From a virus (lineage: Duplodnaviria; Caudoviricetes), in the IMG/VR virus record IMGVR_UViG_3300028603_000025, positions 1 to 64,000 of that record: 64,000 bases of DNA, one strand, 5' to 3'. Of the stretch, positions 1 to 62,199 are shown one piece after another. Positions within the stretch are counted from its first letter, which is position 1, and every line of letters starts with the position of its first letter. Position numbers and translations under genes: made by a program. A model generated the notes under the pieces. That model saw only the letters and a list, made by a program, of their open reading frames with translations, was not told the DNA's origin and made no database searches.

Positions 1-610
1 CGGAGGATGTTATCATTCCTTAGGCATCAAGTCAGATTATACTTTATGGACTTGGGGCGATAACGGAAATGGTCAACTCGGGGACGGAACGACCACACAA
101 AAGTTAAGCCCGGTTCAGATTCCGGGAACATGGATAAGTATATCCGGAGGAGGTAGCCATTCCTTAGGTATCAAATCAGATTGTACTTTGTGGGCTTGGG
201 GAAATAACGGATTGGGTCAGCTCGGGGACGGGACTACAGCAACCAAGTTAACTCCTATTCAGGTTCCGGGATCCTGGATAAGTATATCAGGAGGAAGTTC
301 TCACTCCTTAGGTATCAAGTCAGATTGTACTTTATGGGTTTGGGGATATAACGTATGCGGACGGCTTGGAGACGGAACAATCACAAACAGGTCAAGTCCG
401 GTTCAGGTTCCAGGAACATGGTTAGGAATATCTGGAGGAGATTATCATTCCTTAGGCATCAAGTCAGATAATACTTTATGGGCGTGGGGACATAACGGAA
501 ATGGCCAACTCGGGGACGGAACATTCTCACAAAGGTCAAGTCCGATTCAGATACCAGGAACCTGGATAGGCTTATACGCAGGAGGTAACCATTCCTTAGG
601 TATAGAGGGA
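1..610 (+). repeat. Tandem 144-nt (48-aa) RCC1 repeat units with high DNA similarity
   Basis: Units start at 1, 145, 289, 433 and ~577, sharing (c/t)attccttagg(c/t)atcaa..tcagat..actttatgg. Confidence 0.9.
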
Positions 611-1789
611 GAAGAACTTGGTCCTCCACCTCCACCATCCTCATTAACAGAATGCACTCTCTGGACTTGGGGTAACGGAACTTCTGGGCAACTTGGCGTC
701 TGTTCTACCACACCATCCCCGGTTCCTCTTTATGTAAATAATAGTTTCGGATGCATTCAGGTATCCAATATATTTGCTGCTGCTTTGGATACTTCTCGAC
801 AAATGTGGACCTGGGGGGCAAATCCTGCCGGGGAATTGGGAACAGGAGACACAAACCCAAGAAGTACACCGACGCTAATACCTGGAATCTGGCATTCTTT
901 CTCTATGTCCACATCCCAGATTCTCGGAATCAAACTTGATGGAACCATGTGGACCTGGGGTTGTAATATTGGCGGCAAACTTGCCGACAACTCTATTATC
1001 CCGAAATCTTCTCCGGTCCAGATTCCTGGTATGTGGCTAAAGACGGCGGCAGGAAGAAGTGCCGCGATGGCCCTACAAACTAATTGTACTTTATGGACCT
1101 GGGGCGCAAATTCTTCTGGGTTCCTTGGTGTAGGGGACAGAATCAGCCGGAGTACACCGGTTCAGGTTCCCGGAATCTGGATAGATATAGCTTCTGATTC
1201 ATGGAGCGCCTTTGGGATAAAAGATGATTGTACCCTCTGGGCCTGGGGCCAGAACGATTGTGGTCAACTCGGTATCAATAATATCAACCATCAATGCACC
1301 CCGGTTCAGATTCCGGGAATCTGGACTTGTATTACCGCATCCAGATATAACGCGATGGCGCTAAAGACAGATTGTTCGTTATGGATATGGGGGGATGATG
1401 ATAGAGGGCAGTTGGGAAGAGATACACAGGGTAAAGATTCATCGAGTCCAGTTCAGGTTCCCGGAACATGGATTTCTATTTCATCTGGTATATGTTTCAT
1501 GACCGCAGTGAGGTCTGATTGTACTATCTGGGCTTGGGGCGATAACGGGACAGGTCAACTCGGACAAGACGACGTAATAAACAGAAGTTATCCAGTTCAG
1601 ATTCCTGGAACATGGACCGAAACCACTTCTGGCGGAAACTTCGTCGCGGCATTCGGATGCTATGAAGCCCCGATTCCCCCAGAACCGCCTTATGTCCCCG
1701 ACGCTCGAGGAATCTGGCTCGTTAACGATGTTCATAATTTAACTCTATCAGGAGATTGGGCTACTTTCGATATCGGAATCGACGATTAG
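2..1789 (+). CDS. RCC1/BLIP-II repeat beta-propeller protein, 5'-truncated by window edge; probable virion receptor-binding or decoration protein
   Basis: Frame is open from position 2. Repeated LWxWGxNxxGQLGxG...SSPVQIPGxW units; Pro-rich linker GPPPPPSS between two repeat blocks. Confidence 0.9.
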   Translation, partial: GGCYHSLGIKSDYTLWTWGDNGNGQLGDGTTTQKLSPVQIPGTWISISGGGSHSLGIKSDCTLWAWGNNGLGQLGDGTTATKLTPIQVPGSWISISGGSSHSLGIKSDCTLWVWGYNVCGRLGDGTITNRSSPVQVPGTWLGISGGDYHSLGIKSDNTLWAWGHNGNGQLGDGTFSQRSSPIQIPGTWIGLYAGGNHSLGIEGEELGPPPPPSSLTECTLWTWGNGTSGQLGVCSTTPSPVPLYVNNSFGCIQVSNIFAAALDTSRQMWTWGANPAGELGTGDTNPRSTPTLIPGIWHSFSMSTSQILGIKLDGTMWTWGCNIGGKLADNSIIPKSSPVQIPGMWLKTAAGRSAAMALQTNCTLWTWGANSSGFLGVGDRISRSTPVQVPGIWIDIASDSWSAFGIKDDCTLWAWGQNDCGQLGINNINHQCTPVQIPGIWTCITASRYNAMALKTDCSLWIWGDDDRGQLGRDTQGKDSSSPVQVPGTWISISSGICFMTAVRSDCTIWAWGDNGTGQLGQDDVINRSYPVQIPGTWTETTSGGNFVAAFGCYEAPIPPEPPYVPDARGIWLVNDVHNLTLSGDWATFDIGIDD

Positions 1790-17990: not shown

Positions 17991-19307
17991 ATGGCAGTCA
18001 TTACCTTACGTAACGTCAAAGGAACCCCGTTAACAAACTCAGAAGTTGACGGTAATTTTGCAAACTTAAATACCGAAATAGGCGAAGTCTCGGGTACCCT
18101 TGGTAACGTAATCACGAATCAAGGTAATCTCGAAGGACTGTCTACCACGGATAAAGGAAATCTGGTTGCTGCGATCAATGAAGTATACCAGAAATCCACA
18201 GAAGCTGCGAACATCGATTTATCGAATGTGCGAATCACGGGCGGAGAAATCACTAATACTGATTGGAAAGGAAATATCGTACCTATTCAGTATGGTGGGA
18301 CACAAGCAAATACAGCGACACAGGCCAGAACAAATCTTGGTCTGGAAATAGGAAACCACGTTCAGGCATGGAATACGAATCTTGATGACCTGGCGGCTTT
18401 AACTCCTACAGAAAACTTTGTTGTTATCGGGGACGGAACAGAATGGACTACCGCTAATATCATCGACCTTATCAATGATGGTGCAGGCGGTAATCTTGGT
18501 ACCATGGCTTTCCAAGACGCAAACTCTATTACTATCGTTGACGGGACAGCATCAGGAACATTCAGTGCCGCTTTGTTCTCAGGGGACGGTGGTCTGTTGT
18601 CGAATATCTCCGGAACAGGAGGCGGAGGAGGCTCAGGTTTATTCAATACTGAAATTTCTCAGTCTACCGGATACCTGTTGACCACTTCTGCTGCAAATGC
18701 CTTAGTAATTCCTAATACTGACCCTGACGCAAGATATATACTTCATTCGATTCATGTAACTAATATCAGTTCAGAAGGAAACGCAAACGCAACAATTAAT
18801 CTGTTGGGAACAGGGTATGCTACCAATATCACTCTGGGGGATAGCGTTCCATTGACCAAGAATACCGCAACCGAAATCCTGAAGAAACCGAAGATTCTAC
18901 AACCTGGTAATTATATCCAGATGGTTGCCTCGGATGCCAACCGGTTACACGCAACTATCACCTTGGAGAAGAGTGACGAATCAGCTTATTTCGGTTCAGG
19001 AGTCGATATAACCGTTTCTGATACCTATATGATAGCAGGTCAGACTGACGCAAACTCGGTTATCGAATCTATCCTTCTGACCAATGATTCAGCAGGTGGA
19101 TTTGATGCTCAGGTTAATTGCACTTGGGTAAATGCGGCAAACGTAATTCAAGGATATTACTGTTTTGGTATGGTCGTTCCTTCTGGGGGAACAATTGAAT
19201 TACTCGAGAAACCTAAATTCCTTCCGGCTAACCATAAAATCATGGTTTCCGCGAATATGCCAAATCGTATCGAAGCAATCGTTTCTGGCAAGAAAGACAT
19301 ATCTTAA
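17991..19307 (+). CDS. Tail-fibre-like protein with two tandem C-terminal beta domains
   Basis: KGTPLTNSEVDGNF N-terminus, LVAAINE, GGT...ARTNLGL and LGTMAFQ fibre motifs; duplicated SIxxTN...EILxKPKxL domain; CATAAATA at 17945. Confidence 0.7.
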   Translation: MAVITLRNVKGTPLTNSEVDGNFANLNTEIGEVSGTLGNVITNQGNLEGLSTTDKGNLVAAINEVYQKSTEAANIDLSNVRITGGEITNTDWKGNIVPIQYGGTQANTATQARTNLGLEIGNHVQAWNTNLDDLAALTPTENFVVIGDGTEWTTANIIDLINDGAGGNLGTMAFQDANSITIVDGTASGTFSAALFSGDGGLLSNISGTGGGGGSGLFNTEISQSTGYLLTTSAANALVIPNTDPDARYILHSIHVTNISSEGNANATINLLGTGYATNITLGDSVPLTKNTATEILKKPKILQPGNYIQMVASDANRLHATITLEKSDESAYFGSGVDITVSDTYMIAGQTDANSVIESILLTNDSAGGFDAQVNCTWVNAANVIQGYYCFGMVVPSGGTIELLEKPKFLPANHKIMVSANMPNRIEAIVSGKKDIS

Positions 19308-20455
19308 TGGAGAAGCAACCCTGGCATTCTCATATATGGGAACTGTGCGACGTTTATAAATACTCCGTTCGCGGACAATGGGTGGATTACTCAAAGGACA
19401 ATGACCCGTTCGGAGATATCTGGGCGTTTGGGGGAGTATATTTCAACACGTGCGGGGGTCACGGAACATATCCATCCCCAGTTAAATTTCCAGGTCAATG
19501 GATTGACATTCAATATGCCGACAGGCAGGGTTTCATGGCAAGAAAAGCAGACTGTTCTGTTTGGTCATGGGGAAGATATAATCAGTGCGGGAATTTCGGG
19601 GTTCCGTGTTCGGTGGAATATATATCTTCCCCAACTCAGATTCCTGGAAGATGGAAGAAATACTGGCTTGGAATCGGAATTGATACTGATGATAACCTCT
19701 GGACTTGGGGCGAAGCAGGACATCTTGGAAATAATACCAATGCTCCTTCCTTATCTATGGTCCAGATTCCCGGAAAGTGGTTAGACTTTAATAGAAACTG
19801 GTGCGGACTGGGAAGAATTACCGGGGCGATTAAGTCTGATTGCTCGTTATGGATGTGGGGAAATAGCTGTTCTTTACATTATGCACTATGCGGGATAGCA
19901 ACAGTCGCGGATTCACCGGTTAAGATTCCTGGTTCATGGAAAAGTGTTTGTTTATCTGTTCATGGAGATTCAGTAATAGCCCTAAAGAACAACTGTACTC
20001 TATGGGCCTGGGGAAGAGGAGATCGCGGAGTATTAGGAAATGGCAGCACAACTCCAACCACATCCCCTATTCAGATACCAGGCAATTGGAAATGTGCCGT
20101 TACTACTGTTTCCGATTCGGTATATGGAATACGCAATAACGACAACAATCGTTTATGGGGGTGGGGATGTTCATTTGTTCCTCCTCCAAATCCTCCTGTC
20201 CTCAGAAGTAGTCCGGTAATCATAAACGGATGGTGTTGGGCCACTATATGTTCAGATGCAGGCAGATTGAAAGGAAAGATAGAAGGATGTGATTCTCGGT
20301 GGTATTTTCATGTTATTTCAGGAACTCATTTAGGTTATAATGTCTATTATCCATGTAACAATAATATCGTTTTTGGCTGTCCTGCTCCGACTTGTCAGTT
20401 TGAAGATTATAAATTCAGCACCAACGGAGGAGCGACTCTATTCATAAATAGATAA
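19307..20455 (+). CDS. RCC1-repeat beta-propeller protein (Cys-rich)
   Basis: LWxWG...SPxQIPGxW repeats; TAATG overlap couples it to the fibre gene. Confidence 0.85.
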   Translation: MEKQPWHSHIWELCDVYKYSVRGQWVDYSKDNDPFGDIWAFGGVYFNTCGGHGTYPSPVKFPGQWIDIQYADRQGFMARKADCSVWSWGRYNQCGNFGVPCSVEYISSPTQIPGRWKKYWLGIGIDTDDNLWTWGEAGHLGNNTNAPSLSMVQIPGKWLDFNRNWCGLGRITGAIKSDCSLWMWGNSCSLHYALCGIATVADSPVKIPGSWKSVCLSVHGDSVIALKNNCTLWAWGRGDRGVLGNGSTTPTTSPIQIPGNWKCAVTTVSDSVYGIRNNDNNRLWGWGCSFVPPPNPPVLRSSPVIINGWCWATICSDAGRLKGKIEGCDSRWYFHVISGTHLGYNVYYPCNNNIVFGCPAPTCQFEDYKFSTNGGATLFINR

Positions 20456-52175: not shown

Positions 52176-55100
52176 TTGATTAAAGTAATCGTTAAGAGAG
52201 ACGGTAGGAACGAGGAGTTTTTTCCTCATAAATTAAACGGATGGGGAGAATGGGCAGCAGATACGTTAGGTGAATATGTCGATTGGCAAGGGATAGTATT
52301 GACCACGGTATCCACTCTTCCCGAAACGTGTTCGACTGATTTGTTGCAGGATAGATTAATAAAATCATGTTTGGATATAGGCACGTATTCGTACAATCGC
52401 ATGGCAGGAAGACTCTATGCTGCACAATTGCGCAAACGAATATTCCGAAACGGAATGCCTACCGTGAAAGAGTTGCACGAAAATCTTATCGAAAAAGGAT
52501 ACATGGTAAGGATGAAGTACTCGGATAATGAGTATGATGAGATTGAAGGGATAATTAATCACGAACTGGATTACGATGCTACTCATTACGAATTACATCA
52601 AACGAGGTCAAAATACTCATTACAGAACCGCGTAACCGGAGAAGAATTCGAGACACAGCAGTTCGTATATATGAGAATGGCTATGGCCTTGGCCGAAACT
52701 CAACCTCTAAACCGTAGAATGTACGATTTGAGAAAATGGTACGAGCACCTTAGTAAAAAGAGGCTGAACGCCCCGACGCCAAACTATGTTAACTTGGGCA
52801 CTTCTTTGAAGGGATATGCGTCATGCTGTCTATTCACGACCGGGGATACCGCCAAGAGTATCGAAACAGGAGTTCATATTGCATATACCATGACCACCAT
52901 GTCTGCTGGAATTGGTGCACATATGAATATACGCAGCCTGGGCGACGCGGTAAAGGGCGGTACGATCCAACACATGGGAAAGATACCTTATTTTAGATAC
53001 CTTGTTTCGGCGGTCCATTCGTCTTTGCAGAACGGGAGAGGTGGTGCATGCACTACTTACTATCCTGCATTTGACCCAGAAGTCAAAGTGATTAGTCAGT
53101 TGAAAAATCCAATGTCCACCGAAGACAAAAAAATTCGTGGAATGGACTATTCGTTCGGGAGCAACAAGTTCTTTGCTCGTAAGGTAGCAAAGAACGAAGA
53201 AGTGTTCTTATTTAACGGATTCACGGCTCCTGATTTGTATGAGGCGATGTATTCTTCTGATACGGAATTGTTTGAGAAACTCTACGTTAAATATGAGAAC
53301 GACGAGTCATTCAAAAAGGAATACGTGAATGCTCGCGATATAGTTACCACGGTTCTAAACGAGGGATATGAAACGGGAAGAACGTACCTCCATTTTCCCG
53401 ATGAAATGAACAGGCATACCCCATTCAAGGACCCTATTTATAGCTCAAATCTTTGCGTTGCTCCGGAAACCGAAGTCTTGACCAAAAACGGTTATGTTCC
53501 TATCATCGAACTATCCGGAAACGAAGTTGAAGTTTGGAATGGTGAAGAGTGGAGTTTGTCGAAGGTCGAAAAGACTGGAACAAATCAAAAATTGCTTAAG
53601 GTGACGACCTCTGCTGGGCAGGTAATAGAATGTACACCATATCATAAATTTTATGTGATAGACGATTACTGGAAATCTCCGCGCGAAGTTCGTGCGTATG
53701 AGTTGCAAGAGGGAGATAAACTGATTAAATTCAATCTTCCTGTAATAGAAGGGGAAAGAAAGCTAGATAAAGCATATATAAATGGGTTTTATTGTGGAGA
53801 TGGGTGCTTGACAAGTCAGGGACAACGTATCTACCTATATGGTGAGAAAAGAAATCTCCAAGGTTATTTTGAGACCGGAAGTAAATGGACCATCCAAGAT
53901 GATTTGGATAGACAATATATTCACTTTAAAGATTTGAAAGATAAATTTTTTGTTCCCATGAACGATTATGATATAAATAGCCGACTTCAGTGGTTATCTG
54001 GGATACTTGATTCTGATGGGTGCGTCTATAGAAATGGTACGAACGAACAACTCGTGATATGTTCTATAGAGAAAGAATTTCTTCGCGATATTCAAAAAAT
54101 GCTACAAACTCTGGGAGTATCTGCAAAAATATCGTCTGTTTTGGAGGAGGGGTTTAGACTTCTTCCCGCTAACGATGGTAGTGGAGAAATGAAGAATTTT
54201 TGGTGCAAAAAATCATACCGCCTATTGATTACTAGCTGCGACGCTCATAAACTTTATCAACTTGGTTTACGAACACATCGTTTAAAAATAAACGATAGAT
54301 TACCTCAACGAGACGCCAGACAATTCACCAAAATTATAAGTGTCGTTGATGAAGGAAGATGCGATGACACATACTGTTTAAACGAACCGAAACGCCATAT
54401 GGCAATGTTCAACGGAATTTTGACTGGACAGTGTGCGGAAATAAGTCTCCCGACTAAACCTTACCATAACATGCAAGACTTGTATTCAACCGAAGACCAC
54501 GGAAAATCAGAAATCGGTCTGTGTTCTTTAGCCGGAGTCGTGGTATCCAATATCGAAAACGACGAACAGTATGAAGAAGTAATTTACTACGCCCTGTTGA
54601 TGATTGATAAATGTATCCATATGTCTGATTACGTTCTTCCTCATCTTGAAGTTACGGCCAAGGGAAGGCTGTCCGCGGGAATAGGCGTAATAGGGCTGGC
54701 GCATTTGATGGCTAAGAACAAACTATTATACTCTTCCCAAGAAGGAAAAAACTTTATTCATGAGTTGTTTGAGAAGCACATGTACTATGCAATCAAAGCC
54801 TCCTTGAGACTTGGAAAAGAGCTCGGTAATGCTCCGTGGATGAATAAAACCAAGTGGGTAGACGGATGGATGCCTATTGACTCATATAACCGTAACGTGG
54901 ATAAGATAGTAACCATTTCTAATCGGCTTGATTGGGAGTACCTTAGACATGAGGTCATGAGAAATGGAGGAATTCGTAATAGCGTTTTAGTTGCTCATAT
55001 GCCTTCCGAGAGTTCGTCGAAAGCATCAGGAACGACTAATGGAGTATATCCGGTAAGGGATTTGTCTTTGCTCAAAGGAGACAACACCACCATGACTTAC

Positions 55101-55403
55101 TGGGCTGCTCCAGAAGGAGAAGCTCTCGGAGAATGGTACGAACGTGCCTGGGATATCGACACCAAGGATATGATTGATTGTTATGCCATAATGCAAAAAT
55201 TTACCGACCAGGCTATCAGCGCCGATTTATACCGTAGACTCGTCGGAGATGATGTGGTTACCACTACAGAAATGTTGACAGATTATCTGTATATGGTTAA
55301 AATGGGAATGAAAACTCGTTATTACGTTAACAGCAAAACGTCTGATGGCGTAGAGTTGGATAATGGCGATGTCGGTTGCGCGGGCGGCGCATGCACACTT
55401 TAG
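52176..55403 (+). CDS. nrdA: Class Ia ribonucleotide reductase alpha subunit containing an intein
   Basis: ATP cone (VKRDG), PTP, ASCCL, SNL|C...|CAEI, PSESSS, DQAIS, KTRYY and C-terminal CAGGAC. Confidence 0.95.
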   Translation: MIKVIVKRDGRNEEFFPHKLNGWGEWAADTLGEYVDWQGIVLTTVSTLPETCSTDLLQDRLIKSCLDIGTYSYNRMAGRLYAAQLRKRIFRNGMPTVKELHENLIEKGYMVRMKYSDNEYDEIEGIINHELDYDATHYELHQTRSKYSLQNRVTGEEFETQQFVYMRMAMALAETQPLNRRMYDLRKWYEHLSKKRLNAPTPNYVNLGTSLKGYASCCLFTTGDTAKSIETGVHIAYTMTTMSAGIGAHMNIRSLGDAVKGGTIQHMGKIPYFRYLVSAVHSSLQNGRGGACTTYYPAFDPEVKVISQLKNPMSTEDKKIRGMDYSFGSNKFFARKVAKNEEVFLFNGFTAPDLYEAMYSSDTELFEKLYVKYENDESFKKEYVNARDIVTTVLNEGYETGRTYLHFPDEMNRHTPFKDPIYSSNLCVAPETEVLTKNGYVPIIELSGNEVEVWNGEEWSLSKVEKTGTNQKLLKVTTSAGQVIECTPYHKFYVIDDYWKSPREVRAYELQEGDKLIKFNLPVIEGERKLDKAYINGFYCGDGCLTSQGQRIYLYGEKRNLQGYFETGSKWTIQDDLDRQYIHFKDLKDKFFVPMNDYDINSRLQWLSGILDSDGCVYRNGTNEQLVICSIEKEFLRDIQKMLQTLGVSAKISSVLEEGFRLLPANDGSGEMKNFWCKKSYRLLITSCDAHKLYQLGLRTHRLKINDRLPQRDARQFTKIISVVDEGRCDDTYCLNEPKRHMAMFNGILTGQCAEISLPTKPYHNMQDLYSTEDHGKSEIGLCSLAGVVVSNIENDEQYEEVIYYALLMIDKCIHMSDYVLPHLEVTAKGRLSAGIGVIGLAHLMAKNKLLYSSQEGKNFIHELFEKHMYYAIKASLRLGKELGNAPWMNKTKWVDGWMPIDSYNRNVDKIVTISNRLDWEYLRHEVMRNGGIRNSVLVAHMPSESSSKASGTTNGVYPVRDLSLLKGDNTTMTYWAAPEGEALGEWYERAWDIDTKDMIDCYAIMQKFTDQAISADLYRRLVGDDVVTTTEMLTDYLYMVKMGMKTRYYVNSKTSDGVELDNGDVGCAGGACTL
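53454..54431 (+). mobile_element. 326-aa LAGLIDADG intein at the NrdA active-site Cys, ending in Gln
   Basis: CVAPET, TPYH, NGFYCGDG, LSGILDSDG and ILTGQ|C. Confidence 0.92.
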
Positions 55404-56521: not shown

Positions 56522-56596
56522 CCGAAAAAATAGCGGCGGGAATCGTCGGTACTGCTAGTCGATGTAATGTTATAAACAAGAGGAAAAAAGGAAGGT

Positions 56597-57443: not shown

Positions 57444-57911
57444 ATGGAAATGGAATATCTACCTGACTCACTTAGGGAGTATCTATCTTCGACCTACGGC
57501 ATTCGGCCTCTTGCGAGGAGTAGGGATGCGCCCCCGAACTCCTACGCGGTTATTGACTCAATGTATTCTTTACGTTCCCTGAAGGTCGAATGTCCGAAGT
57601 TGCTTCACCTTCTGGAAATGTCTTCTCATGAACGAATGAATGTACTAGTCATATTGATATTGCGCAGGGGCGATAACGGGAAGTTTCAGGTAACTTCTGC
57701 CCGGACACATCCGGATTCCCTCAGATTCAATGACGCGTTATGTCAGGATGATGTTATCCTACGAACAAAGACAAAAGTTATCCGGGATGATACAGAAGGA
57801 CTGATTAAGGAGTTACGGTTGATCGAAGACAGGGCTTCGTGCATCCTGTTGGATGCTCACAACAAGTCGGTCGAGAGTGTTACGGCTGGCAAAGGAATTA
57901 GAATTGGTTAG
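57444..57911 (+). CDS. Hypothetical protein
   Basis: 155-aa ORF with GGAG upstream. Confidence 0.55.
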   Translation: MEMEYLPDSLREYLSSTYGIRPLARSRDAPPNSYAVIDSMYSLRSLKVECPKLLHLLEMSSHERMNVLVILILRRGDNGKFQVTSARTHPDSLRFNDALCQDDVILRTKTKVIRDDTEGLIKELRLIEDRASCILLDAHNKSVESVTAGKGIRIG

Positions 57912-57947
57912 GCTGGTGCCTACCAGTGTAAAAAGTTGTTCCACCTG

Positions 57948-57976
57948 TTGACAAACCTTCGAATCGTACGTATAAT
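57948..57976 (+). promoter_or_regulatory. Consensus sigma70 early promoter TTGACA-N17-TATAAT
   Basis: Perfect consensus; spacer resembles that of the 25328 promoter. Confidence 0.9.
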
Positions 57977-58019
57977 TTAAACAATCGATAACAAACAAAG
58001 AATGATTAAGGAGATAGAA

Positions 58020-58277
58020 ATGACTAAAGTAAATTATGAAGGGCAAGAATTTACGCTGATAACCGAGCCTGTGCTCGAAGCCAAGTATCCCATCCTTGAT
58101 TATGGGACGGGATACGCCACATCAACACCCATTCAGTATGACTTTGAGTACACTGCGAAAGCAGTGGGCGCTGATGGTAAGTCATATTTACTATACTGGA
58201 TGTTTGAAGAAGGAGAACCTGTACTATTCACAGAACCGTACGACATCGAATGTATGGATGACTTTGAAGAAGAGTAA
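58020..58277 (+). CDS. Hypothetical early protein
   Basis: AAGGAG RBS before ATG 58020. Confidence 0.7.
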   Translation: MTKVNYEGQEFTLITEPVLEAKYPILDYGTGYATSTPIQYDFEYTAKAVGADGKSYLLYWMFEEGEPVLFTEPYDIECMDDFEEE

Positions 58278-58540
58278 TGACTATTCTAAAAAATATCGAA
58301 ACTGTAAAAAGGCTGGAGGAAATTGCAAAAAACCATTTATGCGGTGGCAAGTTTTCGTACGAGAACGGCAAAGCCCGTATTATATTTTTTCAGCCCTTTT
58401 CAGGGTTAGGCGGTGTTCAAGTATCGCTCCGAAAAGGAAAGTCCAATGCATTAGAAATTCTAATTAAAAAACTTGACGAACTGTACAATAAAGAATTTTC
58501 ATGGTCGAAACATCACTTTGATATTAAATCAAATGAGTAA
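58277..58540 (+). CDS. Hypothetical early protein
   Basis: TAATG coupling to the upstream gene. Confidence 0.65.
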   Translation: MTILKNIETVKRLEEIAKNHLCGGKFSYENGKARIIFFQPFSGLGGVQVSLRKGKSNALEILIKKLDELYNKEFSWSKHHFDIKSNE

Positions 58541-58597
58541 TGACAATGCCGACATATAACGGAGTAATTCACTTCCTAAAAATATTTCAAATAACCA

Positions 58598-58626
58598 TTG
58601 ACATGTCGCAGCGGATACCGTAAACT
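58598..58626 (+). promoter_or_regulatory. Sigma70-type promoter TTGACA-N17-TAAACT
   Basis: Hexamers, spacing and AT-rich UP region. Confidence 0.8.
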
Positions 58627-58659
58627 TCTTTTCATCGAATCACGAACCGGAGTAACAAA

Positions 58660-58884
58660 ATGACAAAGCAAGATAAGATAATCGCTGCGCAACAAGAATT
58701 CAAGAATTCAAGCGTATACAAAACCTGTTCTGCTAAGTTTAATGAAGCGCGCGAACTGGGACTAAAAGGAGCAAGAATGTTTTACCACGTAAAGGAGGAG
58801 TTTAAGGCCGAGCAGGCCAAAATGAAAGAAATTGCAATGAAGTACGGAGTTCCTCCAGAAGATATCTGGGACTGGTCAATTTAA
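58660..58884 (+). CDS. Hypothetical early protein
   Basis: GGAG RBS. Confidence 0.7.
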   Translation: MTKQDKIIAAQQEFKNSSVYKTCSAKFNEARELGLKGARMFYHVKEEFKAEQAKMKEIAMKYGVPPEDIWDWSI

Positions 58885-58907
58885 TTTAACTTAACTTAAG
58901 GATAAAC

Positions 58908-59519
58908 ATGAAATTATCATACTTGATTACGAGCGCAGCTTTAGTATTTGCTTCACATTCATCATTTTCCGCGTCAACATCAGACGTAACGTTCAACGGG
59001 AGCAAATCAGACGCATACGTTTCTACCGGAAGTAACTTCACGAACGCAACCGATGCGACTAACTATGCCAATACCAATAACGTGTTTGGGGGCGGATGGA
59101 ATGTCGGGGATGGAGTAGTTGACGGATTTGATTTTACCTTTGTCAAGTTCGGGGGAATGTACGGATTGGGCGTAACAGAAACAGGAACAAACGCATTCGC
59201 CCTTCCTGCCATCATGGACCTGTCGATTTACGTTCCTTCAGGAAACGACGGGGATTATTATTTCTTTGATGATGTAGAAGTGGACTGGCTTTCAGCAGGA
59301 ACATATGACCTGAACTGGGAATGGGGGACTACCTCCGTCAATTTAGGATTCTTCACAATTGACATTCCCACTTACTTACCTACCACAGACTCAAGTGGAG
59401 TATCCTTGTTAGTCCGCGATATTCGTTCAAGTCAAGTTCCGGAACCAATGCCTTTGGCTTTGCTCGGAATCGGACTTCTGGCGGCAAGTTTCGCATCAAG
59501 AAGAAAAGTAATTAACTAA
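58908..59519 (+). CDS. PEP-CTERM sorting-domain surface protein
   Basis: Sec signal peptide; S/T/G/N/D-rich body; C-terminal VPEPMPLALLGIGLLAASFASRRK. Confidence 0.92.
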   Translation: MKLSYLITSAALVFASHSSFSASTSDVTFNGSKSDAYVSTGSNFTNATDATNYANTNNVFGGGWNVGDGVVDGFDFTFVKFGGMYGLGVTETGTNAFALPAIMDLSIYVPSGNDGDYYFFDDVEVDWLSAGTYDLNWEWGTTSVNLGFFTIDIPTYLPTTDSSGVSLLVRDIRSSQVPEPMPLALLGIGLLAASFASRRKVIN

Positions 59520-59525
59520 AACAGG

Positions 59526-59547
59526 AGCCGGGGAACCCCGGCTTTTT
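59526..59547 (+). terminator. Rho-independent terminator
   Basis: agccgggg-aa-ccccggct followed by tttt. Confidence 0.85.
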
Positions 59548-59943: not shown

Positions 59944-62199
59944 TTACTCGTCTATTTCTGGAACAAACTCAGACCAACACCCTTGTTTATTCAGCATCGC
60001 GACGTCGTTGATAGAAGCAATTCTGAGATAATGTTCTTTGTTATACTTCCAAGTGCATTCTTCAACAAACCACGAAGTATTACTACCACTACCGACCCAA
60101 GCATACTTGCCCGGAATCTGAACTGGACTTGACCTATTACTAGTATCTCCAAGTCCCAGCTCTCCAAAACCGTTACGACCCCATACCCATAAATCGCCAC
60201 CTCCGGTAGGCGTCAGTCCGTCCTTAATCCCAAACGAACTTGTTCTAGTTCCTCCGACACAAACCCATTTTCCCGGAATCTGGACCGGGGTTGAAATATT
60301 GGTCTCGTTGCTATTGTTACCTATCGCGCCAAGGTTCCCTAATCCCCATGCCCATAAATTACAGTCAGTATCTATTGCTTGGTTGGCATGTTCACCGACG
60401 TTAATATGGATATAATGGCCCGGAATCTGAACCGGGGAAGAAACACTCTGACCTGCCGCACATCCGGAACCAAACATTGACCAGAGCCAGTGTCCCCAGA
60501 CCCAGAGAGTACAGTCAGTTCTTAATCCCATTGAGTGATTTTGGCTTAAGCCGATAAGTGATACACATAACCAGTTACCGGGTAGTTGAACCGGACTTGA
60601 CCTGGCTATTACATCCCCCAGTCCAAGAATTCCACAAGTATTTCTGCCCCAAACCCAGACTGTTCCATCACTTTTCATTCCTGCTGCGACATCAACTCCT
60701 GCCCAAACACATTTCCACGAGCCTGGAATCTGAATCGGACTTGAATAACAAAATGTATTTCCTGTTCCGAGCTGACCACTTTCGTCATATCCCCAAACCC
60801 ATAAGCTTTCGTCCTCCTTAATCCCGTACCCTGCTGAATATCCTGCCGTAAATTTACACCAGTTTCCCGGAATTTGGGTCGGGGTAGATATACCACATAC
60901 CGATACTTCCCCAATCGGGAGGACTTGACCAAAATGATTCCGTCCCCATCCGTATAATTCACCATTCGCGGTTAATCCATAAGCGGTATTATCAAATGAC
61001 GACCAGGTCACGAAATTTCCAGAATTGCATACGTTTACTCGGTCGATAGAATGCTGGGCATTGTTGTTTCCAAGCTGGCCCCATTGATTATGGCCGACCG
61101 AAGTCATACGATTTTTGATATAGACTTTTCCGTGCTCGTAGAGGCAGTCTTCGATGGCCATGGTGATATTACAAAACCCAGAAGATACGGATTTATATCT
61201 ACCAAGAATCTGAATAGGGCTGGATTGGTCATCAGTGTTGCCTATCCCTAACTGACCCACGCAATTCGTGCCCCAAGTATATAAGCTCCCATTTGTCTTT
61301 GTCGCTGACGAGAAAGACGTTTTAGACGATAAAGTATCCCACTTTCCGGGTATCTGAACCGGGCAGGATAATGCACCGACTGTAAGGCCGACTCCTGTTC
61401 TTCCATTACCATTAGTCCCCCAGGCCCACATGTCATTATTGCTATCAATCCCTATCACGAAACAATCTCCAGCGGACGCACAAATCCAGTTTCCGGGAAC
61501 CTGAACCGGGGATGATTTATCCTGGCCATAACATGGGTTACCCAAATATACTTGATGTCTGGAGCGACCAGTGACCCACAAGGAACCATCTTCTTTGATG
61601 AAAGATGCTCCGGTACATGATATATCGGCCTTCCTGAATCCTGAACCGATAAACACCGGAGATGATCGATAAGTTATAGTATTATCACCAAGCTCGCCGA
61701 ATTCGTTTTTGCCCCAAGTATATAAATCGCCATTGACTCGGATTCCTGCCATTCCAAACACTCCGGTCTTAATTTCCTTCCAGTTTCCGGATAGTTGAGT
61801 TGGAGTACTGATACGGACATTACTGGCAAGATTTAAGCCGAGCGCACCACACAAATTACTGCCCCATACCCATAATGAGCAGTCCTGTTTAAGAGCCGCC
61901 ACGATATTATTATTTTGGGATATACAAAGCCAGTCGGACCCAGGAAGTTGAACCGGGCTTGAACGGGAAGAGTTACTTCCGGTTCCAAGAATTGAGAAAG
62001 TACCGAGACCCCATGAATATAACTCATTGTCTTCGGTTATCCCGAAAGAAGATTTACCGATTTCAATTTGCCTCCAAATCTTACCGTTAATCCATACCGG
62101 GGATGATTGATTAACTGCGCAGTTATTGTTGAGCTGACCTTCGAGACCGTAACCGGCGGCCCAGATTCGGTTGTAACATTGGCGTGGTTTTATAAACAT
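59944..62199 (-). CDS. RCC1-repeat double beta-propeller protein (Cys-rich)
   Basis: About 14 LWxWG...SSPVQIPGxW repeats; minus-strand AATAAATA at ~62236-62243. Confidence 0.9.
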   Translation of the reverse strand: MFIKPRQCYNRIWAAGYGLEGQLNNNCAVNQSSPVWINGKIWRQIEIGKSSFGITEDNELYSWGLGTFSILGTGSNSSRSSPVQLPGSDWLCISQNNNIVAALKQDCSLWVWGSNLCGALGLNLASNVRISTPTQLSGNWKEIKTGVFGMAGIRVNGDLYTWGKNEFGELGDNTITYRSSPVFIGSGFRKADISCTGASFIKEDGSLWVTGRSRHQVYLGNPCYGQDKSSPVQVPGNWICASAGDCFVIGIDSNNDMWAWGTNGNGRTGVGLTVGALSCPVQIPGKWDTLSSKTSFSSATKTNGSLYTWGTNCVGQLGIGNTDDQSSPIQILGRYKSVSSGFCNITMAIEDCLYEHGKVYIKNRMTSVGHNQWGQLGNNNAQHSIDRVNVCNSGNFVTWSSFDNTAYGLTANGELYGWGRNHFGQVLPIGEVSVCGISTPTQIPGNWCKFTAGYSAGYGIKEDESLWVWGYDESGQLGTGNTFCYSSPIQIPGSWKCVWAGVDVAAGMKSDGTVWVWGRNTCGILGLGDVIARSSPVQLPGNWLCVSLIGLSQNHSMGLRTDCTLWVWGHWLWSMFGSGCAAGQSVSSPVQIPGHYIHINVGEHANQAIDTDCNLWAWGLGNLGAIGNNSNETNISTPVQIPGKWVCVGGTRTSSFGIKDGLTPTGGGDLWVWGRNGFGELGLGDTSNRSSPVQIPGKYAWVGSGSNTSWFVEECTWKYNKEHYLRIASINDVAMLNKQGCWSEFVPEIDE

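Follow-up and report, generated by a model that had tools for sequence, protein, structure and literature searches.

To our knowledge, exosortase is the only enzyme that reads the PEP-CTERM tag, and its cleavage at the PEP motif is still largely inferred, even in bacteria. The association between PEP-CTERM proteins and EpsH was described by Haft et al. (2006; PMC1569441), who also reported sigma-54 sites ahead of proteobacterial PEP-CTERM genes and put a PEP-CTERM/EpsH system of Nitrosomonas europaea on record. [quoted passage not shown] Changes in the exoproteome that depend on exosortase have been reported as well (PMC12188702). Full-text searching of the literature turned up no account of tailed phages with PEP-CTERM genes; closest is a 2026 preprint which mentions that a virus-like element of Dehalococcoides has a PEP-CTERM domain. 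The phage protein considered here is like the substrates of the bacterial PEP-CTERM/exosortase (EpsH, XrtA) system in its signal-peptide-like N-terminus, its variable ectodomain and its tail of VPEP, helix and basic residues; it departs from that system in that its gene is found in a T4-like phage of virulent type, on a record without an exosortase, and has no sigma-54 motif. The present case contributes a T4-like carrier, a bacterial parent family with a member at an XrtA locus, a sigma-54 motif that has been lost and a lead to the host.

The window, that is, the whole stretch of DNA analysed (64,000 nucleotides), covers the first 64 kb of an IMG/VR virus record that is 98.9 kb long and has a completeness estimate of 59%. 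The first-pass annotation took it for phage DNA, and it is indeed DNA of an uncultured T4-like phage, with genes for proteins of the tail and the baseplate wedge, for helicases (Dda-like and others), for a class I RNR and for a gp43-type polymerase that is 34–36% identical to the polymerases of T4-like cyanophages. The NrdA gene (52176–55403; 1075 aa) matches RNR profiles in two separate blocks and has an endonuclease-like stretch at residues 589–645, a layout that fits an intein insertion. Several RCC1-repeat proteins are encoded in the window, at 2–1789 (+), at 19307–20455 (+) and, convergent and just downstream of the PEP-CTERM unit, at 59944–62199 (-; 751 aa). The gene for the PEP-CTERM protein (Table 1) is the sole ORF of the record with such a tail, and its G+C content is 44.9% compared with 41.7% for the phage. 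It stands 23 nt behind a phage ORF, whereas bacterial PEP-CTERM genes stand alone after a long intergenic region. The first-pass annotation had also remarked that no exosortase is visible in the window; a search with TIGR02602 extends this to the whole 98.9-kb record, itself estimated to be about 59% complete, and an exosortase may be encoded elsewhere in the phage. Relatives of the protein were not found in IMG/VR or among deposited phage genomes, and PHROGs gave no match to it even at E 10; an alignment query (A1) returned no hit from genome contigs. NrdB-based relatives of the phage (L002–L004) were rejected as a guide to the slot, being only 48–49% identical and sharing no synteny downstream.

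Table 1. Features of the PEP-CTERM unit (positions in the window; residues refer to the 203-aa protein).
Feature	Position	Strand	Remarks
Sigma-70-like promoter match, TTGACA-17-TAAACT	58598..58626	+	10/12 positions; intergenic gap, 34 nt before the 74-aa ORF
74-aa ORF, no known family	58660..58884	+	23 nt upstream of the PEP-CTERM gene
PEP-CTERM protein gene	58908..59519	+	203 aa plus stop, ATG start
Signal-peptide-like N-terminus, residues 1-22	58908..58973	+	Sequence; alignment with signal peptides of the family
Ectodomain, residues 23-175	58974..59432	+	Predicted beta-sandwich (AlphaFold2), no matching solved fold
PEP-CTERM sorting domain	59433..59516	+	TIGR02595 and PF07589 above cut-offs
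VPEP, residues 177-180	59436-59447	+	Sequence
Membrane helix, hydrophobic 17-residue stretch 181-197	59448-59498	+	Sequence; model helix 181-199
RRK, residues 198-200	59499-59507	+	Sequence; protein ends 3 residues later
G+C-rich hairpin, then UUUUU	59526..59543	+	dG -16.2 kcal/mol, z -3.0

The gene has a ribosome-binding site (AAGGA) 8 nt upstream of its ATG, and its product, judged by sequence, is a genuine PEP-CTERM protein. At its extreme C-terminus the PEP motif is followed by the membrane helix and the basic cluster, and the tail passes the profiles that define the domain, with 21.3 bits against a curated cut-off of 16 for TIGR02595 and 22.0 bits against 20.7 for PF07589. The claim of a signal peptide and a complete VPEP-helix-RRK tail therefore stands for the tail, with VPEP exactly where it had been placed, and the N-terminus is signal-peptide-like: it consists of MK, a 13-residue hydrophobic core and SHSSFSA, and in the family alignment it falls in register with the signal peptides of the other members, with an unusual Phe as the -3 residue at the likeliest putative signal-peptidase site. 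The tail is not a chance motif, since homology to bacterial PEP-CTERM proteins spans the whole length of the protein (E 4e-10 to 1e-6 in a search of 1.8 billion proteins). The body is rich in Gly, Thr, Asn and Asp. An AlphaFold2 model built from 13 family sequences (mean pLDDT 71.7) has a disordered N-terminus, with pLDDT below 50 for residues 1–19, the strands of a beta-sandwich between residues 27 and 174, and the helix given in Table 1. In fold searches with the beta-sandwich, Foldseek returned nothing at E below 0.07 from PDB and BFVD, and the VIA scores (at best Z 5.6, for YajI; Z 4.5 for RbmA) were within noise; the ESM Atlas gave PEP-CTERM clusters only.

The exhaustive search of the 1.8 billion representative proteins returned 14 distant relatives with E values between 4e-10 and 1e-3, and a profile search gave 35 clusters, nearly all of them 190–280-aa PEP-CTERM proteins from metagenomes. 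The named relatives are from Noviherbaspirillum (WP_325017598; pairwise E 2e-17 with the phage protein) and a Desulfobulbus MAG (MCL2457820), and the nearest bacterial relatives are only 30–41% identical to the phage protein. Family members (P0003–P0017, P0149–P0178) are PEP-CTERM proteins of about 200–250 aa that share, over their full length, the motifs SDVTFNG, FGGGW, LPxxMD, YFFDD and LxVRD and then VPEP. The phage protein is similar in size to PepA, has the same tag and shows weak full-length similarity to it; the identification as PepA was rejected, with 33 bits against NF033554 (residues 17–200) where the equivalog cut-off is 80, and with the sigma-54 promoter motif absent. Family members score about 33–34 bits with the same model. 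By sequence comparison, then, the phage protein is in a small uncatalogued bacterial PEP-CTERM family that is distantly PepA-like; the phage clade nests inside this family and shares its motifs from SDVTFNG to VPEP, and differs from it by a loop missing after GGGW, a gain of about 14 residues ahead of the tail and the absence of cysteines.

Full-length members are rare in bacteria, with 4/201 sampled genomes of the Noviherbaspirillum order and 5/151 of one family in that order (one genome common to both samples), and an exosortase above cut-off is present in 8/8 of the bacterial genomes with a full-length member. The copy of the Noviherbaspirillum MAG lies inside a canonical XrtA locus. Upstream of it is PrsT, with one other PEP-CTERM gene in between, an arrangement that recalls pepA, which adjoins prsT; downstream are the XrtA chain-length determinant, the XrtA-associated tyrosine autokinase, the TIGR03016 outer-membrane protein and the TIGR03015 ATPase, and the exosortase follows 12.6 kb further along the contig. 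The intervening PEP-CTERM gene (L005:8996–9745, -) is divergent and encodes 250 aa. Linkage to an XrtA locus belongs to the Noviherbaspirillum copy only, three other copies being elsewhere and the remaining four outside the positional comparison.

A sigma-54 -24/-12 motif was found 55–142 nt upstream of 4/4 bacterial copies examined, where the background rate in these loci is 0.096 per 400 nt. These motifs fit the sites described for proteobacterial PEP-CTERM genes (PMC1569441) and are in keeping with pepA, which depends on RpoN (PMC9850573). The phage copy is unlike both, with no such motif upstream of the gene (58400–58910); the presence of the motif on the bacterial copies and its absence from the phage copy place the latter outside the PrsK/PrsR/sigma-54 control of the host. 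The first-pass annotation had instead set the gene in an "early-promoter island". A sigma-70-like match is present (Table 1), but promoter-like sites are no commoner in the region than in shuffled sequence and the stretch at 58598 is not conserved in a variant locus from another JGI metagenome (L001, a 1.7-kb contig), so that the island is plausible but unsupported and not established. As to the terminator that the same annotation placed after the gene, the hairpin and U-run behind the stop codon are likely an intrinsic terminator, shared with the convergent side.

The 74-aa ORF, which has no Pfam or PHROG match, adjoins the PEP-CTERM gene in L001 too, with 3 synonymous and 4 non-synonymous differences, and the two are probably co-transcribed as one unit. 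L001 and the window are 97–98% identical where they align, which is over this ORF, codons 1–113 of the PEP-CTERM gene and the end of a 155-aa ORF further upstream. Between these conserved parts, the place of window positions 57864–58659 is taken by L001:142–1112, with an ORF of 86 aa and an HNH_3/AP2 homing-endonuclease gene of 185 aa, the latter ending 16 nt before the 74-aa ORF. The swap removes two small ORFs (58002–58540) together with the 58598 promoter stretch and constitutes a presence/absence polymorphism beside the PEP-CTERM unit.

The close relatives of the phage protein are five metagenomic variants with 75–99% identity, six with the protein of the window. The signal-peptide-like N-terminus, VPEP, the helix and RR are kept in 6/6, and residues 164–181 around VPEP (GVSLLVRDIRSSQVPEPM) are invariant across the six, even at 75% identity; the helix varies conservatively (AASFAS, AAGFTS, GMGITT). 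Over the 113 codons that they share, the window and L001 differ by 3 synonymous changes and 1 non-synonymous change, too few for a test and consistent with constraint.

The explanation to which we give a little better than even confidence is that the phage carries the gene as cargo (a "moron"), taken long ago from a bacterium, where it encoded a PEP-CTERM surface protein, and much diverged since; an XrtA-type exosortase of the host would process the product, with slime retention altered as the outcome. Its phage-like G+C and the long stem of the phage clade, nested among bacterial sequences, suggest that the capture is old. What the analysis shows directly is the domain architecture, the place in a bacterial PEP-CTERM family, a tag conserved across the phage clade and a record without an exosortase; export, exosortase processing, expression timing, function and host are inferred, and the steps would be as follows. 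A phage promoter, rather than the sigma-54/PrsK-PrsR circuit of the host, would drive transcription during infection; Sec would export the protein by way of its signal peptide; the C-terminal helix would anchor it in the inner membrane, with RRK in the cytoplasm; and the XrtA-type exosortase of the host would recognise and cut the VPEP tail, so that the beta-sandwich domain passes to the surface of the infected cell or into its exopolysaccharide layer. The destination of the protein is probably the surface, or the slime layer, of infected cells. Once there it would most likely, by analogy with PepA, alter how slime is held on the infected cell, and an effect on matrix retention is the best-grounded guess as to function; the payoff could be a cell kept in the floc beside new hosts, or a barrier against other phages. 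The roles listed by the first-pass annotation (superinfection exclusion, receptor masking, altered floc or EPS behaviour, jamming of the sortase) are candidate roles. The analogy with PepA is loose because the protein reaches only 33 bits where 80 are required, and the activity of the ectodomain may differ since it has been remodelled relative to the bacterial copies, as described above.

An explanation that dispenses with the exosortase would make the product a plain membrane-anchored periplasmic protein, its tail serving as an anchor only, for instance in superinfection exclusion of the kind exerted by small T4 membrane proteins. A signal peptide, a C-terminal helix and a basic cluster would by themselves give a stable type-I topology, the record has no exosortase, and the gene sits among small phage ORFs without an assigned function; a bare anchor, however, needs no VPEP, yet it is the stretch around this motif that is invariant while the helix varies, and every bacterial genome with a relative has an exosortase. 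We regard this explanation as unlikely. Rather less likely still is that the protein acts as a decoy substrate whose strong early expression would flood the host exosortase, leaving host PEP-CTERM proteins unsorted, loosening slime or floc and easing the spread of progeny. The tag is the same as that of host substrates, expression is uncoupled from the sigma-54 control of the bacterial copies, and conservation in the protein peaks around the cleavage motif; against this, the ectodomain is also conserved (75–99% identity over the full length), which a pure decoy does not need, and overexpressed PepA raised rather than lowered bound polymer (PMC9850573). That the gene is a passenger without a phage role, whether a recent accidental capture or an assembly chimera, is very improbable: the region is variable, with the adjacent ORFs swapped for the homing-endonuclease gene in L001, but the frame is intact in 6/6 variants, the nearest bacterial relatives are distant (30–41%), the G+C is phage-like, an identical protein (P0019) sits on a 133.7-kb contig with the phage hsdM, and L001 has a 97% identical variant of the gene with the same phage genes beside it. 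The 133.7-kb contig is taken to be the one on which the hsdM of the phage (P0029) is found, whose longest contig is 133,704 bp. The gene is not an assembly artefact, because of this identical protein, the 97% variant elsewhere and the five tag-keeping variants (75–99%), so that the chimeric host insertion considered by the first-pass annotation does not hold.

Returning to the gene as captured cargo, its donor was sought in a maximum-likelihood tree. The phage clade has a long stem (0.92) and nests among the bacterial sequences, the tree being midpoint-rooted and the nesting dependent on the root; its sister (support 95/90) is a clade of two metagenomic proteins with the copies from genomes G171 and G286. 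These two genomes and three other carriers of the same GTDB family have amoA above cut-off, several of them in two identical copies, and are betaproteobacterial ammonia oxidisers; all five have an exosortase. The G+C of the locus is 43–50% in the ammonia-oxidiser carriers, near that of the phage, compared with 62–67% in the other carriers. On the other hand, the phage and ammonia-oxidiser copies are only about 35–40% identical and the family is sporadic in that group. Tree and composition thus hint at ammonia oxidisers as a lead to the donor, possibly the host, and are not proof. One genome of an ammonia oxidiser has a broken copy of the family (L023; G254:C1:1229765–1230352), the match being interrupted by one TGA and one TAG. 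As for the exosortase-positive host that the first-pass annotation proposed, the exosortase in 8/8 relative-bearing genomes lends it indirect support and suggests such a host.

Two other routes to the host were tried. No CRISPR spacer against the phage was found when two of five phage pieces were compared with 151 genomes of the ammonia-oxidiser family, two candidates being scored per genome, a search of low sensitivity; it yielded only hsdM/hsdS homology and one 43-nt match. This match was rejected as a spacer, being the 3' end of a TnpB-like gene without flanking CRISPR repeats. In the window it lies at 56530–56572, in the gap between nrdB and a methyltransferase gene, and is 93% identical to the 3' end of the TnpB-like (IS200/IS605) ORF in genome G335. 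The attempt to reach the host through hsdM failed, the gene having a high G+C (55–58%) and a product 87–91% identical to proteins of many phyla. The hsdM/hsdS block (L026:10016–12780; 94.0–96.8 kb of the record, past the window) has the same 55–58% G+C against 41.7% for the phage, its DNA is 74–85% identical to that of at least 10 genomes of the ammonia-oxidiser family, and it is a promiscuous cassette.

A more specific form of the cargo explanation, and one that is rather improbable as a whole, would have a T4-like phage of Nitrosomonas-like, exosortase-positive, floc- and biofilm-forming betaproteobacterial ammonia oxidisers, in which a captured PepA-like protein, freed of sigma-54 control, re-tethers exopolysaccharide on infected nitrifiers. 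Were it true, aggregation in nitrifying flocs would be under the control of the phage, or rival phages would be kept out of them. Phages of ammonia oxidisers are still poorly known (bioRxiv 10.64898/2026.05.02.722434).

PEP-CTERM/exosortase sorting has so far been understood only as a chromosomal, sigma-54-controlled process linked to the making of slime and flocs. If a virulent phage keeps cargo of this kind under a promoter of its own, this implies that phages can use the pathway to alter the surface or matrix of the infected cell. The tag would mark the host as exosortase-positive and the gene tree gives a lead to ammonia oxidisers, and phage use of the pathway would bear on the stability of wastewater flocs and on the spread of phages inside aggregates.
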